DNA from: an uncultured Bdellovibrionales bacterium
GTDB taxonomy: Bacteria > Patescibacteriota > Minisyncoccia > Moranbacterales > UBA1568
Direction of reading: 5' to 3'
Length of the DNA: 64,000 bases
NCBI GenBank assembly: GCA_964594215.1
Contig: CAZQLN010000003.1
Span: 25,447-89,446 of the forward strand
The position numbers and the translations under genes are program-made. The notes beneath the pieces were generated by a model. That model did not search any database. It was given only the letters and a program-made list of their open reading frames with translations, and was not told where the DNA came from. Shown here one piece after another: positions 45,772-60,031 of the stretch (the first letter of the stretch is position 1; every line of letters starts with the position of its first letter).

Positions 45772-46293
45772 ATGACTCAAAAAGAATACCAGATGGAGGA
45801 GCAAATCAAGCGATGGAATATCGTAGCCATTGGGATTTTTGTCATTCTTACGCTGCTAGCAATACGTTGTCTTGATGTTCGTGATATACAATTGCAATAC
45901 CTTTCACTAGGTGACTTCATGATACTCGCCCTGGCTATCATGCGGGTTATTCGTCTCATAGCTTATGATAATATCACCCTTTTTCTTCGCGAAGCCTTTC
46001 TTGATGTCAAAACGGTTCGTTATGCAGAAGAAGGGGAAGAATTTATCGAGCGAGTCCCTTCTGAAAATTCTCTCAAGCGTACCATATCAAAACTACTCAA
46101 CTGTCCATGGTGTCTAGGCGTCTGGGTGGCCTTGTTTGTTCTTTATTTTGCCCTTGTGTACCCAAGTCTTTGGATTATCTTTGTCTTACTCGCTCTCTCA
46201 GGAGTGGCAAGTCTGATCCAGATAGCAGCCAATCTTATGGGCTGGAATGCGGAGTACCGTAAGATAGCGACTGAAAAAACCATTAGTATGTAG
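45772..46293 (+). CDS. hypothetical membrane protein with CPWCxGxW motif (DUF1360-like, low confidence)
   Basis: NCPWCLGVWVALFVLYF… within TM helices. Confidence 0.5.
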   Translation: MTQKEYQMEEQIKRWNIVAIGIFVILTLLAIRCLDVRDIQLQYLSLGDFMILALAIMRVIRLIAYDNITLFLREAFLDVKTVRYAEEGEEFIERVPSENSLKRTISKLLNCPWCLGVWVALFVLYFALVYPSLWIIFVLLALSGVASLIQIAANLMGWNAEYRKIATEKTISM

Positions 46294-46299
46294 TAAGAT

Positions 46300-47466
46300 A
46301 TGCCAAGTTTTGAACGACCAAGGCTGACTGAAGTCATACCTATAAATGAAGAGGGTATCAGTAAATTAAGAGATACCTTTGAAAACTATTTTTCTCAAAT
46401 AAACAGTGAGACCGGAGTAAGCGTATTTTTGGAGGCTGTAAAAGAAGTTAACTCAATTGAGATAAGTGCTAAGAATCAAGAGTACGTTAAAGGATGGCTT
46501 GCTCAAATCCTTGAGAAGTCTTACTATTTAGCATTTATAGCTGGTATATCTACAGAAGTCTTTTCTAAGGAACTTCAAACAGGTTTAACTTTAGTGCCAA
46601 TAATTCCTGACTATCTGAATGAAAGTCACGAAAGAGAGCTCAAAAGAGAGCCTGCTTTTATGGAGAGTATAGAGGGCACCCTAGAAAGATTTTCATATAT
46701 TGAAAAGTTGCCACAGATATTTAGAAAAAAAGTGCAAGCTATAATAATAGGAGGATCAATGAGTTACGGACCATTTTTTAATATTCGAAAGAATTTAGAC
46801 AAAACAGGAAGTTCAGATATTGATGCTATCTTTGTGATGAAAGAAGATTTTTTGGATGACGATAACTGGGAATTATTTAACACTTCTTCTCAATTCTTTG
46901 AAGAAGATAAAATCGAATTTCAAAAAAGAAAAAAAGATTTTAAAACACTCTACGTGCAAAATCAGGCAGATGTATTTAGTCAACGCTTCAATGTTCCGGG
47001 ACGTGATTTTAATATGAGCGTACATTTCTTTACTCTTGAGAATCTTGAGAAGATGTGCAATTCTGAACTCAAGGATGATTTAAAGTTGAATCTTGATAGG
47101 GTTAAAATTTTAAGAGATTTTAAGGCTAGAAAATTTGAACACAAAGATTGCAATCAGTTAAACTTTTTTGGAGAAATATTTTCATACCCCATTCCAGAAC
47201 AGAAGCCAGTTGATGGTGGGTACATTGCAAATTTACCCAGTTACATGATTAGGGGAGGTCATCTGTATCCAGGAATCTATCAGAATATAATATCACCAGA
47301 ATTTTCAGTCTTTTGTGATAATGGAGGAGAGGTGGGAGATTTGGTAAAGGTCTTTCAACAAAATATTCAAAATAGACTTGATGATGAAAATAATGTAAAA
47401 GAGGGAGCTGGTTCTATAAAGGAATCTCACTTCAGAAACCATTTTTTTGCTTTAGGAAGATACTAA
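46300..47466 (+). CDS. pol-beta-superfamily nucleotidyltransferase-fold protein of unknown specificity
   Basis: IIGGSMSYGPFFNIRKNLDKTGSSDIDAIFV matches hG[GS]-x(n)-DhDh; third acidic cluster FLDDDNWE; about 140-aa N-terminal extension. Confidence 0.5.
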   Translation: MPSFERPRLTEVIPINEEGISKLRDTFENYFSQINSETGVSVFLEAVKEVNSIEISAKNQEYVKGWLAQILEKSYYLAFIAGISTEVFSKELQTGLTLVPIIPDYLNESHERELKREPAFMESIEGTLERFSYIEKLPQIFRKKVQAIIIGGSMSYGPFFNIRKNLDKTGSSDIDAIFVMKEDFLDDDNWELFNTSSQFFEEDKIEFQKRKKDFKTLYVQNQADVFSQRFNVPGRDFNMSVHFFTLENLEKMCNSELKDDLKLNLDRVKILRDFKARKFEHKDCNQLNFFGEIFSYPIPEQKPVDGGYIANLPSYMIRGGHLYPGIYQNIISPEFSVFCDNGGEVGDLVKVFQQNIQNRLDDENNVKEGAGSIKESHFRNHFFALGRY

Positions 47467-47469
47467 AAA

Positions 47470-48027
47470 TTACATCTTTTCAAATACATGGACTGCTTGA
47501 GCCATGCTGCGGACATCGTGGAGAGCGTTGTGTACGTGTCCGTACATCTCTAGTCCAGCTGCCTGATAGAGTGTTCCGCTAGAGTAGGCATCAGCATCAA
47601 TTTTCCATCCAGAAAGTAGGGGCTTGACTTTAATAAAGGGTAAATCTTCAAAAGGATAGGCGATCCCAAAGTAAGAACAGTTCTGTTGTAATACTCCCCA
47701 ATCAGCATTGAATGTCCAGATGGGATAGTTTTTGACAAAGTCTACAAGACTTTTTAGCGCTGTTGGAAAATCAATCGCATTAGTAGTTAGTTGAGAATCA
47801 GTAATATTTGTAAGTTCAACGAAAAAAGGTGGAAGTTTTTTTTCAAAAGCTGGCCATGTCAACACGTCAAAACTAGTCACTTCTTTTCCAGTATGATTAT
47901 CGAACAAAATAGCAGAAATTTGGACTATTTGACGCTTTTCATTTTCATCGGGACGACCCTTTTCGGGAGTCATTTCGGGATAGCAGTATTCTAGGTCTAA
48001 GTACACTCGATAGTCATTTTCTTTCAT
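47470..48027 (-). CDS. DEDDh-family 3'-5' exonuclease (DnaQ/oligoribonuclease/KapD-like)
   Basis: Exo I VYLDLEY (DxE), Exo II FNADWG, Exo III HNALHDVRSMA (H-x4-D); 185 aa. Confidence 0.65.
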   Translation of the reverse strand: MKENDYRVYLDLEYCYPEMTPEKGRPDENEKRQIVQISAILFDNHTGKEVTSFDVLTWPAFEKKLPPFFVELTNITDSQLTTNAIDFPTALKSLVDFVKNYPIWTFNADWGVLQQNCSYFGIAYPFEDLPFIKVKPLLSGWKIDADAYSSGTLYQAAGLEMYGHVHNALHDVRSMAQAVHVFEKM

Positions 48028-49469: not shown

Positions 49470-49542
49470 GGGTGTGTAGCTCAGTTGGTAGAGCAGTGGC
49501 CTTTTAAGCCAACGGTCGCAGGTTCGAGCCCTGCCACACCCA
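49470..49542 (+). tRNA. tRNA-Lys (anticodon UUU); 3' CCA not encoded
   Basis: Manual fold: perfect 7-bp acceptor GGGTGTG/CACACCC, D-arm GCTC-AGTTGGTA-GAGC, anticodon loop CTTTTAA, 5-nt variable loop, T-arm GCAGG-TTCGAGC-CCTGC, discriminator A. Confidence 0.85.
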
Positions 49543-49571
49543 CAAATTAATTCAATTACATATTTTTTATT

Positions 49572-53858: not shown

Positions 53859-54725
53859 ATGAAGTATACCTTCTCAACCGCTCTTGTGGCGGTGTCGCTC
53901 GCTTTTGCTTCCCAGGCCTCGGCCAAGGAAGTGAAGCCGGCAGAGATGGAGGTTCGCGGCCTTCACGCCGTCGAAGCTCCCTGGCAACCAGAGAGTCTGT
54001 CGCTTGACACGCGTCAAGTGCAGGCACTCCAGGTAATTACTATCCCACTTTCGGAGGCAACAAAGAAAGAATGGGCAAAAGTTAACCGTGATAAACGTGG
54101 TATTCGAATGATCGTCGATGGAGAAGATGGCAAGCCTCGGCTTGTTGGACGACCCGTCATCAAGGCGACGTTTCGCGTATTGCTTATGAAGGATGGTGAC
54201 ATTCTTCCTATGAGCGAAGCCGAAATGATTACCACTGGCGGTGAGGCCATCAATATCCTCTTGCCGCCTGACGTTGATTTCCGTGGAACGACAGCCTTTG
54301 TGTTGGCGGATCGCGGACGTCATGCACTTACTCTTGCGGGTGAGATTATCGATCTCGACAAGGGAAAGAAACGACTTATTACGTCCAAGTTGCCCGATCA
54401 AGTTGCCACTTCGGTGGTGGAAGACACGGCTTTGAGTGTACGGGGTGAGCCTTCTGGGTTGTACCTCGATATGCTGGAAGCCACATTTAGCGAACACGCT
54501 GTTCTCAACAACAGTCTTCGCTATTCCGGTCTTCCCGGCACTTTTCTTTCCAAGGATATGACCCGTTACCCTTCGGTGGCGGCTCTCTATACGAGGGAAG
54601 ACACAGTCGGCGATCGCTTGATTACCTGCGGCAATGGAACACTGGATCCGTCCATGTTCACTGGTATTGGAGCCCTTGTTAAAGTGGGCTCCAACCTCAT
54701 CGTCGCACTCAAGAAACGTTGCTAG
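53859..54725 (+). CDS. secreted hypothetical protein, GC-rich (about 52-55%)
   Basis: Signal peptide MKYTFSTALVAVSLAFASQASA; GGAG 8 nt upstream; composition unlike its flanks. Confidence 0.6.
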   Translation: MKYTFSTALVAVSLAFASQASAKEVKPAEMEVRGLHAVEAPWQPESLSLDTRQVQALQVITIPLSEATKKEWAKVNRDKRGIRMIVDGEDGKPRLVGRPVIKATFRVLLMKDGDILPMSEAEMITTGGEAINILLPPDVDFRGTTAFVLADRGRHALTLAGEIIDLDKGKKRLITSKLPDQVATSVVEDTALSVRGEPSGLYLDMLEATFSEHAVLNNSLRYSGLPGTFLSKDMTRYPSVAALYTREDTVGDRLITCGNGTLDPSMFTGIGALVKVGSNLIVALKKRC

Positions 54726-54828
54726 GAGAAATTCGATGACCTGGCAGCACGGCAACCCTATCGATCAATTCTGGTCGAGACGGTTGCTCTGTGCGCCGTC
54801 TCGACTTCCATCAAGGAGTGTAAGTATC

Positions 54829-56187
54829 ATGAAACGTTTTCTCCTGACCCTTGGGGTCGCCCTCTCGGTGTCGATGACTGGATTCATTTCCAGTTCGGCA
54901 TCGGCGGCGACCACTCGAAATGCCGAAGGGTATGTCGAGTGGAGCCGGGTGGGCGCCGCTACCATGAACTTGTTTCAGGGTGGTGGTCCACGCCTTGATC
55001 TGGCACGCGTTTATGCGATGCGCCAGATGGGTGTGAGCGAACCTGAAATTGCTCAAGTCCTCCTGGACTTTCATGCAAAAAACTTCGAGGAAGGCGTTAT
55101 CCGCAAGGGTGACAAGTTCAAGACGATGTCTTTTGCTAACAAGAAAGAGGTCAAGGTGATGCATAACGTCATCTTGACTGCAGACGGCGAATACAGGGTT
55201 TGGCGGATGCGCACCAAAAGCGGACTGACTATCACGTTCGTTGAGAAGTGTGCCAATGTCGGCATCGAGGAAACTCCGCCGGCACCGCCTGCCAAAGAAA
55301 ACCCTCCGCCGGTAGAGGAAACTCCGCCGGCACCTCCGCCTCCCTTTGTTCCGCCGACGACGGTCGAAGAAGGCCAGCGTCTCTGCAATAAGCTTCGGGT
55401 CAACGGTGTTCTCGGTTTCGAATGGGAACCGCTCATCCATGGCTCGGACTCGCGTAGCTTGTATGCTGCTGCGGGTATCTATTGCATGCGTCTGACCAAG
55501 TACGGTCAAATCGGTTTCGGTCTCGGTGGCCAAGCTGCCTTCTACGGTGGCAAGGTCAAACATGTTGGTCGTTTCCAGGGCCATCTCTATGGCGCAGGAC
55601 CGGCAGTCATGATCGTGAACGACAAAGGTCTCGACTACGAAGGCAAGTTGATGATCATGGACTACACATCAAGCTACCGCCAAGGTGGCTACCGTTCCCA
55701 TGAGCATCGCACGGTGATTGGGATGAGCCTGGCTCATAACGACTACCGTGGCCGGATTGACGGCACTGGCAAGCCAGAAACGCAGTACTTCGCCTTGTGC
55801 GGAGTGCCGATTGGTGGTCATACCACGGAAACGTGGAATGGTCAGAAAATCGGCAACGGCTCGAAGCTCGGGCTTGTCTGCAACGCTGGCCTTCGGAAGT
55901 ATCTGACGGAGGGCAAGAAGTGGAATCCGTATATTCAAGGCGGACTCCTGGGTGAAGCTCGCAAGGGTGGAGCCGACTTCTTGTCTGGCAGTCTGCGTCT
56001 TGGTGCTTCGAATAAGCATCGGACGATCGGTTGTGGAGCGGGTATCGACGTGAACCTGCTTAAGGGCGGTATCCATCCTGGCCTCGGCTGTTGGGTGGAT
56101 GTTGCTGGCATGGTACGCCACAAGCGTACGGCCTCACGGGCGGCAGCTATTGCAGCTGACCAGCTTCCGGCAACCAAGAACGAATAA
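54829..56187 (+). CDS. secreted hypothetical protein with proline-rich linker (EETPPAPPAKENPPPVEETPPAPPPPFVPP), GC-rich
   Basis: AAGGAG then ATG 54829; signal peptide MKRFLLTLGVALSVSMTGFISSSASA. The track ORF from 54634 is an upstream extension. Confidence 0.6.
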   Translation: MKRFLLTLGVALSVSMTGFISSSASAATTRNAEGYVEWSRVGAATMNLFQGGGPRLDLARVYAMRQMGVSEPEIAQVLLDFHAKNFEEGVIRKGDKFKTMSFANKKEVKVMHNVILTADGEYRVWRMRTKSGLTITFVEKCANVGIEETPPAPPAKENPPPVEETPPAPPPPFVPPTTVEEGQRLCNKLRVNGVLGFEWEPLIHGSDSRSLYAAAGIYCMRLTKYGQIGFGLGGQAAFYGGKVKHVGRFQGHLYGAGPAVMIVNDKGLDYEGKLMIMDYTSSYRQGGYRSHEHRTVIGMSLAHNDYRGRIDGTGKPETQYFALCGVPIGGHTTETWNGQKIGNGSKLGLVCNAGLRKYLTEGKKWNPYIQGGLLGEARKGGADFLSGSLRLGASNKHRTIGCGAGIDVNLLKGGIHPGLGCWVDVAGMVRHKRTASRAAAIAADQLPATKNE

Positions 56188-57997: not shown

Positions 57998-59371
57998 TTA
58001 GAGGGTCTTTTTTGTGCCTTGTTTTTGGGTGAGCGCCAGAAGAGCTCCAAAGAGGACAAAGTAAATCCATTCCACAGGAGTGTTTTTGAAAATATTGTCT
58101 GTAAAACCGGCTATAAAAAGACAACCAGTGAAGAGAAGCATAATAAGGCTAAGATCCTGGATGAGTGGTTCAGAAGTGGTTTTTTTGATACGAAGAAGTA
58201 GATAGCTGAGCCAACCATAAAAGAACAGTAGCACGCCGAGACCGAGGATTCCGCCCTCAATAAAGAATTTAACGAAGTCATTGTGAGCGTCATTGGAGCC
58301 GGCAACGGAGTCTCTCACGGTGCTTGCGAAGAGAGGAAAAGTGTTAATACCAGAACCGAGGAGGACACGATCGTCTTGGAATGTTTTGGTAATAACATCA
58401 CTCCACAGTGTCTTGCGCCAGACAATGGAACTGTCAGGGTCAGGCGAGAAACTTTCGGCTACACGGTCTTGGAAAGCGGGTGATATGAAGAGGAGAAAAA
58501 GTGGAAGAATAATGAGAGGAATAAGGAGGACTCGGTATCTGAAGAAGGCTAGACCAAGAACAAAGAGAAAGGTGATGAGCCAGGCTACACGGGCAAAGGT
58601 GAGAAAGAGAAGGAGTAGAAGTAGGAAGAGTATCCCGTAGAGAGGAAGAGAGAATAAGCTTTTGTTTTTTGGTGCAACGCTTCTTTGGTAGATGAGCCAG
58701 ACAATAAGAAGGGCAAATAGATAGAGGGAAAGGGTATTCGGATGAGCAAAAGTACCAAAAATACGAGGGATAGAGACATCAGCGTCACTGAAACCAATAT
58801 GGTTGAAGTATTGGTAAAGGGCGACAAGGCCAGGGATGACAGCTGATAATAAAAGAGCAAGGAGAAGTTTTTTAAAATCTTTCGGGGTACGGACAAAGAG
58901 AAATCCCAAAAGCCCAATAACGTAGAGATCGAAGATGCGAATGATTTCTGTGAGACTGGTAGTCCAGGAAAGAGAATAAGCAAGAGTTACTGTACCCCAA
59001 AGAATAAGGAGAAGAAATGGACCAGTGAGAAGAAGGTGCTTCTGTCTTTCTCGGTAGAGGTAGATAAGGTAGAGACCGAGAAGCCCTATAGCTAAACCAA
59101 GAATCTGTGAGAGTGAGAGATTATAATCACGGACCGTGATAGTGACATACTGGGAGGAGTAGTCGAGTGACATACGGGCAATGATAAGAAGGCTGAGGAA
59201 AGTGAGGGGTCGCTCACGAAAAAGAATGAAAAAACCAATTCCACCAAAAATGACTATAGGGATAGCTAAATTGAAATCAAGGGCAATACCAAAAGTAAGC
59301 CCGATGAAAATAAGGAGAGTAATAATAATTGCGCTTCTGGGAATAGTGAAGGGTTCTTTTATTTGTGCCAT
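57998..59371 (-). CDS. O-antigen ligase/polymerase family (Wzy_C-like) polytopic membrane protein
   Basis: About 12 TMs with large loop; …FGTFAHPNTLSLYL… motif region; glycan-locus context. Confidence 0.65.
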   Translation of the reverse strand: MAQIKEPFTIPRSAIIITLLIFIGLTFGIALDFNLAIPIVIFGGIGFFILFRERPLTFLSLLIIARMSLDYSSQYVTITVRDYNLSLSQILGLAIGLLGLYLIYLYRERQKHLLLTGPFLLLILWGTVTLAYSLSWTTSLTEIIRIFDLYVIGLLGFLFVRTPKDFKKLLLALLLSAVIPGLVALYQYFNHIGFSDADVSIPRIFGTFAHPNTLSLYLFALLIVWLIYQRSVAPKNKSLFSLPLYGILFLLLLLLFLTFARVAWLITFLFVLGLAFFRYRVLLIPLIILPLFLLFISPAFQDRVAESFSPDPDSSIVWRKTLWSDVITKTFQDDRVLLGSGINTFPLFASTVRDSVAGSNDAHNDFVKFFIEGGILGLGVLLFFYGWLSYLLLRIKKTTSEPLIQDLSLIMLLFTGCLFIAGFTDNIFKNTPVEWIYFVLFGALLALTQKQGTKKTL

Positions 59372-59997
59372 GTCAGTGTGTAAGTCATAGTAAAACCACA
59401 GAAACGATGAGCGGTAAGAGTGGCATTAGGAAGTTTGGTGAGGTTAGCAAGAGAAAGAAGATCAGCCTTACTTAAAAGAGACATATAGCCATCAGCGGCC
59501 CAAGATTTACCAATCAGTTTCAAGAATTTATCAAAAAGAGATTGAGGGAGAATTAAGTGAAGGAAAGGGATACGAGTGTGGACTTCTATAGGAAAGTGAC
59601 GATTGGGGGTAGTGAGATAGCCGCGACGACTAACACGAGCCAATTCTCGAAGAAAAGCGAGCTGAGCGTCCCAATTACCCACATGTTCTATAACGGCGTT
59701 GCTGTAAGCGATATCAAACTGATTGTCCTCAAAAGGAAGGTTGGTGCCGTCAGCTTGTATACAAGTAATGGTTGGATAGAGGGTCTGAAGAGCGGCCGGG
59801 TCATCAAGACTGACGACAGTAATCTGTTTTGGATAGGGATAGTGTTTTTCGAGATAGTTATCGGTATCTGAATACTCTCGGGCATTAGCACCCACATCAA
59901 GAATCGTCTCAGTGGGCGTTGGTGAGAGTTGTGAAAGAAAAAAAGTATATTTCTTAGCACGACTTTTGGCTGAGATACGGTAGGCAAAACTTTTCAT
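59359..59997 (-). CDS. class I SAM-dependent methyltransferase
   Basis: Motif I ILDVGANAREY; motif post-I/II …IAYSNAVIEHV…. Confidence 0.7.
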   Translation of the reverse strand: MKSFAYRISAKSRAKKYTFFLSQLSPTPTETILDVGANAREYSDTDNYLEKHYPYPKQITVVSLDDPAALQTLYPTITCIQADGTNLPFEDNQFDIAYSNAVIEHVGNWDAQLAFLRELARVSRRGYLTTPNRHFPIEVHTRIPFLHLILPQSLFDKFLKLIGKSWAADGYMSLLSKADLLSLANLTKLPNATLTAHRFCGFTMTYTLTWHK

Positions 59998-60031
59998 GAC
60001 AAGAAGAAATTTACTCTCTTTATAATACCCT

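Follow-up and report, generated by a model that had tools for sequence, protein, structure and literature searches.

The window analysed here is a 64,000-nucleotide (64-kb) stretch of contig CAZQLN010000003.1, from an uncultured bacterium placed by GTDB in the Patescibacteriota. At 46300..47466 on its forward strand lies an open reading frame (ORF) for a 388-aa protein, a member of a Pol-beta-fold nucleotidyltransferase (NTase) family for which we use the working name X. Tail-to-tail with it, at 47470..48027 on the reverse strand, an ORF encodes a 185-aa DEDDh 3'-5' exonuclease that is KapD/ERI-1-like. The original prediction, made from the letters alone, had described an NTase core in the 388-aa protein and a convergent DEDDh exonuclease 3 nt away, and this layout holds. 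X stops with TAA at 47464-47466 and the exonuclease gene with a reverse-strand TAA at 47470-47472 (tta on the forward strand), leaving a 3-nt spacer ('aaa', 47467..47469); no terminator-like hairpin was found between the two stops in the window. We regard X as representing an NTase family not described before, and its pairing with phosphodiesterases as a two-gene arrangement that is new as well.

The X family and its convergent exonuclease

A word-seeded search returned 30 homologues of X, all of them from metagenomes of the Candidate Phyla Radiation (CPR) type and none with a Pfam domain. An exhaustive profile search with the family widened it to 375 clusters at E<=1e-3, of which 126 reach E<=1e-30; some of the remoter members come from Actinomyces, Lentzea and Plantactinospora. 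Among named relatives, a Candidatus Moraniibacteriota metagenome-assembled genome (MAG) is closest to the locus, its X copy being 57% identical, and the window is on that basis assigned to a Patescibacteria/CPR bacterium. X itself matched nothing in Pfam, NCBIfam or PADLOC, the last being a check that the original prediction had proposed, and its searches against PDB sequences, phmmer and profile runs included, gave only coiled-coil noise. When the 30 members were compared with Pfam at E<=5, NTP_transf_2 was touched by three (E at least 0.026) and Polbeta by two, while MdcG was touched by two of ten distant members (E 0.01 and 0.066). No significant match was thus obtained to a curated NTase sequence model such as NTP_transf_2 or Polbeta, and X does not cluster with CCA-adding or GlnE enzymes, the housekeeping identities that the prediction had named as alternatives.

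Two conserved motifs make up the classical Pol-beta NTase signature. The hG[GS] motif, G151-G152-S153 (46750..46758, forward strand), follows strand beta-1 (residues 145-151) and is succeeded by a helix (153-156); it is invariant in the alignment of the 30 homologues (A1), and G152 and S153 are each 99% conserved in 147 family representatives. The metal-binding DxD motif, S172-D173-I174-D175 (46813..46824, forward strand), sits at the N-terminal edge of the second strand (174-180) and is likewise invariant or almost so in A1, with D173 and D175 each 99% conserved in the same representatives. D273 (47116..47118, forward strand), in strand 267-275, is the sole candidate for the third catalytic carboxylate; its column holds 89% D and 3% E, and the strands that usually bear this residue carry S227 and S240/H242 in X. 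Further conserved residues among the representatives are P118, E122, T127, R130, Y156, F159, R210, S227, S240-x-H242, P333 and R379. The acidic DDD cluster that the prediction had counted as part of the core (FLDDDNWE, around residues 188-190) is present in the sequence, but its columns vary in A1 and it was discarded as a catalytic feature of the family.

An AlphaFold2 model of X, computed from the 30-sequence alignment, reached a predicted local distance difference test score (pLDDT) of 91.4 and a predicted template-modelling score (pTM) of 0.90. In it, a helical domain at the N-terminus precedes a central alpha/beta core, and a beta-rich region towards the C-terminus leads into a long helix; the core has the alpha-beta-alpha-beta-alpha-beta fold of the Pol-beta-like NTase superfamily. 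The all-helical domain (approximately residues 18-141; 46351..46722, forward strand) is built from helices at 18-33, 39-50, 60-80, 85-97, 120-134 and 137-141; its length varies across the family, many homologues having about 70 extra N-terminal residues. Foldseek of the model against PDB returned almost exclusively NTases, all weakly (E at least 0.013). Structural Z scores were 8.0 for Tam41, 7.2 and 6.8 for ANT(4'), 6.7 for LinB, 6.2 for TUT1 and 6.0 for Cid1, and lower for Pol mu (5.7), Pol lambda (5.5), HalB (5.5) and CdnG (5.1). Every meaningful structural neighbour is an NTase. Together with the motifs, which bear out the NTase core of the original prediction, the predicted model makes the assignment of X to the Pol-beta NTase fold solid. 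Judged by the same model, no solved NTase family stands close to X, and the CD-NTases are no closer than others.

Among known systems, the closest to X include Tam41, the Mmp37-type CDP-diacylglycerol synthase (PDB 7ecd/6ig2), and the aminoglycoside and lincosamide nucleotidyltransferases ANT(4')/KNTase and LinB. The latter have a C-terminal helical domain, so that their domain order differs from that of X, which also lacks a Pfam match and a resistance context and has a phosphodiesterase as its conserved partner. Unlike the CD-NTases (cGAS/DncV-like, CBASS) and Hailong HalB, X has no SMODS or PADLOC match and no adjacent effector or Cap genes, its partner is a nuclease rather than an effector, and no specific structural similarity to CD-NTases beyond the generic core was found.

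The exonuclease matched Pfam RNase_T (PF00929) at 2e-9 (38.7 bits against a 24-bit cut-off) and the PADLOC DEDDh model at 1.2e-11. Residues D11, E13, D109, H166 and D171, the last two forming H-x4-D, are kept in at least 115 of 120 relatives, which confirms the DEDDh class. Its best PDB match is ERI1 (1.7e-6, over residues 18-177). The NCBIfam models touched were PolC-exo, KapD and DinG-exo, all far under their cut-offs (24.7 bits against 169 for KapD), and JGI names its relatives 'inhibitor of KinA sporulation pathway (predicted exonuclease)'. The closest characterised relatives are KapD and ERI-1, both 3'-exoribonucleases (for KapD, PMC11736430). The prediction had likened the protein to oligoribonuclease (Orn); its size fits, but no Orn model was among its NCBIfam matches and we rejected that identity. 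The exonuclease family comprises 137 clusters at a minimum of about 50% identity, all Patescibacteria-like, and is more conserved than X (55-75% against 33-76% identity).

Conservation of the pairing and exchange of the partner

Gene neighbourhoods were assessed from called genes and from hmmsearch of the X, exonuclease and AP_endonuc_2 profiles against all ORFs of 40 fetched loci; the resulting census covers about 23 distinct loci and is without phylogenetic correction. X with a convergent exonuclease was seen at nine distinct loci (the window, L006, L008, L010, L012, L014, L024, L025 and L039), which span six unrelated flanking contexts and X proteins down to 33-35% identity. By gene coordinates, the two genes abut or overlap by 4-53 nt in the related loci. 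Synteny of the Moranbacteria type is common to four of the nine, and the other five have unrelated flanks. The pair lies between the genes for a CCA-adding enzyme and a pseudouridine synthase in L012, where a true PolyA_pol+HD gene adjoins X as a separate gene; near a CYTH gene in L014; beside a GDSL lipase gene in L024; beside aminoacyl-tRNA synthetase (aaRS) genes in L025, a Kaiserbacteria MAG; and near peptidase U32 and RecQ genes in L039, a Magasanikbacteria MAG that was reached from the exonuclease side. In this reverse look-up, X was present in one of two long contigs. Contigs of matching length in the X and exonuclease homologue lists suggest about five further pairs. The pairing is thus kept across deep lineages with unrelated flanks, so that the lack of conservation named in the original prediction as speaking against it was not observed, and the association of X with the exonuclease is more than local synteny.

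At nine further loci (L001, L002, L011, L013, L019, L020, L021, L023 and L032), X is followed 2-35 nt 3' by a co-directional gene of the AP_endonuc_2 family (PF01261), which has a TIM-barrel fold. The flanks of these nine all differ, one (L021) is an archaeal MAG, and none has the exonuclease; in the window, tblastn found no AP_endonuc_2 gene elsewhere. The best curated model for this partner is the CbiR cobamide phosphodiesterase (8e-19), and deoxyribonuclease IV models were also matched. With 55-68 bits against an equivalog cut-off of 105 bits, and with B12 context only in L001, the partner was not classed as CbiR. Its best solved relative is MJ1311 (4e-14), listed as the Methanocaldococcus jannaschii homologue of endonuclease IV (EndoIV) (PMC2770678). 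Nine residues are invariant in the nine partners: H66, H107, E144, D178, H181, H204, H206, H215 and E245. They match what we take to be the metal ligands of E. coli Nfo (H69, H109, E145, D179, H182, H216, D229, H231 and E261), and on that assumption the site would be an EndoIV-like multi-metal site rather than the four-ligand site of sugar isomerases.

Two of these loci (L019 and L020) are X and AP_endonuc_2 pairs on different contigs of the same Shapirobacteria MAG, which shows that a single genome can hold the module twice. In L001 (3777-13383), the pair is inserted between two ribonucleotide-reductase (RNR) genes of one MAG, in a cluster that also holds NrdR, a CobA/BtuR adenosyltransferase and DUF4430 and is for that reason B12-related. 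The RNR 3' of the pair has 1424 aa and duplicated domains and probably contains an intein.

A third kind of neighbour was seen once: in L037 (4968-6347), the X reading frame is broken, by a frameshift or as a pseudogene, into two ORFs that overlap, and is followed by a convergent gene for a 154-aa HIT-domain protein that overlaps the X stop by 4 nt. A rough neighbour-joining tree of X, without support values, renders the exonuclease-linked proteins paraphyletic, with the clade of the window beside AP_endonuc_2-linked proteins, which suggests more than one partner switch.

Neither partner accompanies the long form of X (L004 4256-7662; L022 4235-7611), a protein of about 550 aa whose C-terminus is extended by a conserved segment of some 170 aa. 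Its gene overlaps an upstream AsnB-like asparagine synthase gene by 4 nt, with sulfotransferase, APS-kinase and radical-SAM genes nearby. The extension matches neither the exonuclease nor the AP_endonuc_2 profile and has no invariant polar residues, and a fused nuclease was accordingly rejected.

The distant homologues L027-L029 have no partner either. In L029 (5755-8383; Plantactinospora sp.), an X-like gene (profile E 1e-18) comes after genes for a methyltransferase and a carbamoyltransferase and shares a convergent overlap of about 40 nt with the gene of a ThsA-like SIR2 protein (PADLOC ThsA 2.6e-29); the family may here have given rise to a derivative that serves in defence or biosynthesis. 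In L028 (2531-6870; Lentzea indica), an X-like gene (profile E 6e-34) comes immediately after the gene for a 1052-aa NB-ARC STAND protein and overlaps with it. Three more distant members (P0145, P0172 and P0177), annotated as hypothetical, occur in Actinomyces johnsonii and A. stomatis. Since Actinomyces are known hosts of Saccharibacteria, the possibility of gene exchange between host and episymbiont is raised.

No third gene was conserved beside X and its partner in the loci examined, and no effector, sensor or receptor gene was conserved beside X in about 20 loci. PADLOC also gave no match for the AP_endonuc_2 and HIT partners or for the DUF1360 protein described below. Genes for aaRS, CCA enzyme and RNA processing are frequent neighbours of X; such genes are common in CPR genomes, and by our own estimate the aaRS neighbours are not clearly above CPR expectation, so they were not used as a sign of tRNA function.

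Flanks and composition of the window

As the original prediction had said of lysS and serS, the surroundings of the pair are housekeeping: PBP2, greA, lysS, a DUF1360 membrane protein, serS, tRNA-Lys, frr and an rseP-like M50 protease, identified from window translations and from the Pfam labels of syntenic loci. The DUF1360 protein (173 aa; 45772-46293, forward strand; Pfam 2.2e-22) is encoded directly upstream, its gene ending 6 nt 5' of X, and the two genes probably form one operon. Only the Moranbacteria-like clade (L006, L008 and L010) shares this layout, the other X loci being without it, and the idea of a conserved upstream membrane or effector gene, as in Hailong, was dropped for that reason. 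The X gene (46400-47400) is a low-GC island, with a GC content of 0.31-0.35 against 0.40-0.48 in the flanks and an intermediate 0.37-0.41 in the exonuclease gene. Such a composition would suit an accessory or acquired gene without proving that X is one. No X copies were found in phage, plasmid or IMG/VR collections, and an origin from mobile elements was rejected on that ground.

The sole Rfam/ARAGORN match in the window is tRNA-Lys(TTT) at 49470-49543 on the forward strand. Its 3' CCA is not encoded, the discriminator A being followed by CAA, and the organism should therefore need a CCA-adding activity. GC content peaks at 0.538 in 54001-56000, with long overlapping ORFs on both strands, and 58001-60000 has a strong purine skew (GC skew 0.28, AT skew 0.23); Rfam detected neither rRNA nor any other family at 54-56 or 58-60 kb.

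Possible functions of the module

Judged from sequence, a robust description of these loci is that of a two-gene module, in which an apparently active NTase of a new family is joined to a predicted nucleotidyl-phosphate hydrolase of exchangeable fold (DEDDh, EndoIV-like TIM barrel and, once, HIT). X almost always stands tail-to-tail with the exonuclease or head-to-tail with the EndoIV-like phosphodiesterase, and so it is probably one half of an add-and-remove pair. To this extent the synthesis and turnover logic of the original prediction stands: a maker of bonds is linked to a breaker of bonds, and the breaker can be swapped. The effector or receptor that a signalling system would bring was not conserved.

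Taking nucleotides or blocking groups off the 3' ends of nucleic acids is something that EndoIV-type enzymes and DEDDh exonucleases can both do. This shared activity, and the RNA-exonuclease relatives of the partner in the window, lead us to favour, tentatively and well short of even confidence, a module that adds to and removes from nucleic-acid 3' termini, in repair or in tailing and trimming. X would bind metal and nucleoside triphosphate through D173 and D175, probably with D273, and would transfer a nucleoside monophosphate to the 3'-OH of RNA or DNA. Its partner would hydrolyse 3'-terminal phosphodiester linkages, this being the KapD/ERI-1-like exonuclease in the window and an EndoIV/CbiR-like phosphodiesterase with a putative trinuclear metal site in other lineages. 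The module might then trim or clean a 3' end before extending it again, or add tails and take them off. The tail-to-tail overlap leaves no room for a terminator and could make expression of X and exonuclease mutually antagonistic through antisense interference. The NTase fold and motif, the DEDDh and metal-ligand residues and the conserved adjacency with exchangeable partners are shown, whereas the acceptor and its nature as RNA or DNA, the direction in which the two enzymes are functionally related and the antisense control are inferred.

Analogous pairs are known in which 3' ends of RNA are added to and trimmed, namely CCA-adding enzyme with RNase T and TUT7 with 3'hExo (ERI-1), but their genes are unlinked. 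X differs from their NTases in not belonging to the PolyA_pol/PAP family: it has no match to the PolyA_pol head domain (PF01743), and no RNA-binding domain was recognised in it. PolX, which unites a PolXc polymerase with a PHP domain acting as 3'-5' exonuclease and AP-endonuclease, and EndoIV base-excision repair offer a second analogy. Their matches to X are weak, no helix-hairpin-helix motif was identified in X, and its partners are separate genes of the DEDDh or TIM-barrel type rather than PHP.

Several observations weigh against action at 3' termini. No nucleic-acid-binding motif was recognised in X, and the two main partners point in different directions, the KapD/ERI-1-like one to RNA and the EndoIV/CbiR-like one to DNA or to a small-molecule phosphodiester. 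Convergent and operonic orientations fit one regulatory logic poorly. The exonuclease also occurs without X (L040), and the long form of X, without both partners, has a biosynthetic-looking context.

A possible but less probable explanation is that the written and erased product is not a nucleic acid, X making a linear nucleotide signal (NpN, NpnN or a short oligonucleotide) or nucleotidylating a small molecule or protein, and the partner degrading or removing what X has made. DEDDh enzymes, HIT proteins such as that of L037 and CbiR-like phosphodiesterases all hydrolyse nucleotidyl-phosphate linkages, and CbiR shows that the clade of the AP_endonuc_2 partner can hydrolyse phosphodiesters other than DNA (PMC7733943). 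The SIR2 and STAND neighbours of the Plantactinospora and Lentzea genes would also fit, but these actinobacterial contexts, like the HIT partner, are single cases. Beside the CPR X genes no receptor or effector is conserved, and X is absent from the phage, plasmid and viral collections. A DEDDh exonuclease moreover requires a free 3' end and cannot open cyclic nucleotides. The CD-NTase or second-messenger function that the original prediction had put forward is only partly supported: bond-making and bond-breaking genes are linked, and SMODS similarity and an effector are lacking.

That the pair is an enzymatic toxin and its antidote, X arresting growth by extending or blocking the 3' ends of tRNA or other RNA in the manner of MenT and the partner reversing this, we regard as unlikely. 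The tight two-gene organisation, patchy distribution, variable genomic location and partner swapping would suit such a pair, as would the low GC of X and, for what neighbours so common in CPR genomes can indicate, the aaRS, CCA-enzyme and RNA-processing genes nearby. There is precedent in the MenT/AbiEii toxins, which are NTases that add nucleotides to tRNA 3' ends, modifying the acceptor end, and are found in two-gene modules (PMC7450476, PMC11541572). X, however, has no similarity to AbiEii/DUF1814 or to other toxin families in Pfam or PADLOC, and no mobile-element copies of it were found. The exonuclease, being more conserved than X and occurring alone, resembles a housekeeping enzyme more than a specialised antitoxin. 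To our knowledge, MenA and the other known MenT antitoxins are not hydrolases, and we found no literature on an exonuclease counteracting MenT.

A broader scenario carries a similarly low probability. In it, X would be a writer of 3' ends centred on CPR and DPANN that tags or blocks tRNA, other RNA or DNA, with the linked phosphodiesterase as its eraser, and the two would serve as toxin and antidote or as a growth switch. In the convergent form, overlapping antisense transcripts would allow only one of writer and eraser to be expressed at a time, and the actinobacterial relatives linked to ThsA-like SIR2 and STAND genes would be defence derivatives.

Adjacency without functional coupling, with X an orphan NTase retained by chance beside a housekeeping exonuclease, is improbable. 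Convergent genes cannot be co-transcribed, the exonuclease family occurs also without X, and the block PBP2-greA-lysS-DUF1360-X-exonuclease-serS is merely syntenic within the Moranbacteria-like clade. Against this, the pair outlives full turnover of its flanks in six contexts, a second class of phosphodiesterase takes the same 3' position in nine more, and by our own estimate one specific family would, given a genome of about 800 genes, lie next to X by chance with a probability of less than 1% per locus.

Remodelling of a cobamide-type cofactor, in which the CbiR-like partner cleaves the nucleotide-loop phosphodiester and X nucleotidylates the resulting phosphate (phosphomonoester) as CobY/CobU or Tam41 do, is very improbable: CbiR is the best curated model of the partner, the L001 pair lies in a B12-related cluster and Tam41, the top structural match of X, nucleotidylates a phosphate, but the CbiR score (68 bits at most) is below the equivalog cut-off, B12 genes occur in only one of the nine AP_endonuc_2 contexts, so that a recurrent B12 context was rejected, and substitution by an ERI-1/KapD-like exonuclease is left unexplained.

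CPR genomes are small and hold mostly recognisable housekeeping genes, and an intact NTase without a curated model is therefore notable in them; that its partner is kept amid changing flanks adds to this. Such a catalytically intact family is a concrete and testable part of the unknown biology of the CPR. The mutually exclusive DEDDh, EndoIV-like and possibly HIT partners amount to a natural experiment from which the substrate may be deduced. If X makes a nucleotide signal or is a toxin, the pair would count as a novel module of conflict or regulation among episymbiotic bacteria. If, as in the 3'-terminal add-and-remove function favoured here, X lengthens nucleic acids at the 3' end, it would represent a new lineage of terminal transferases and form part of a genetically linked add/trim pair of a kind that is otherwise only functional and unlinked.

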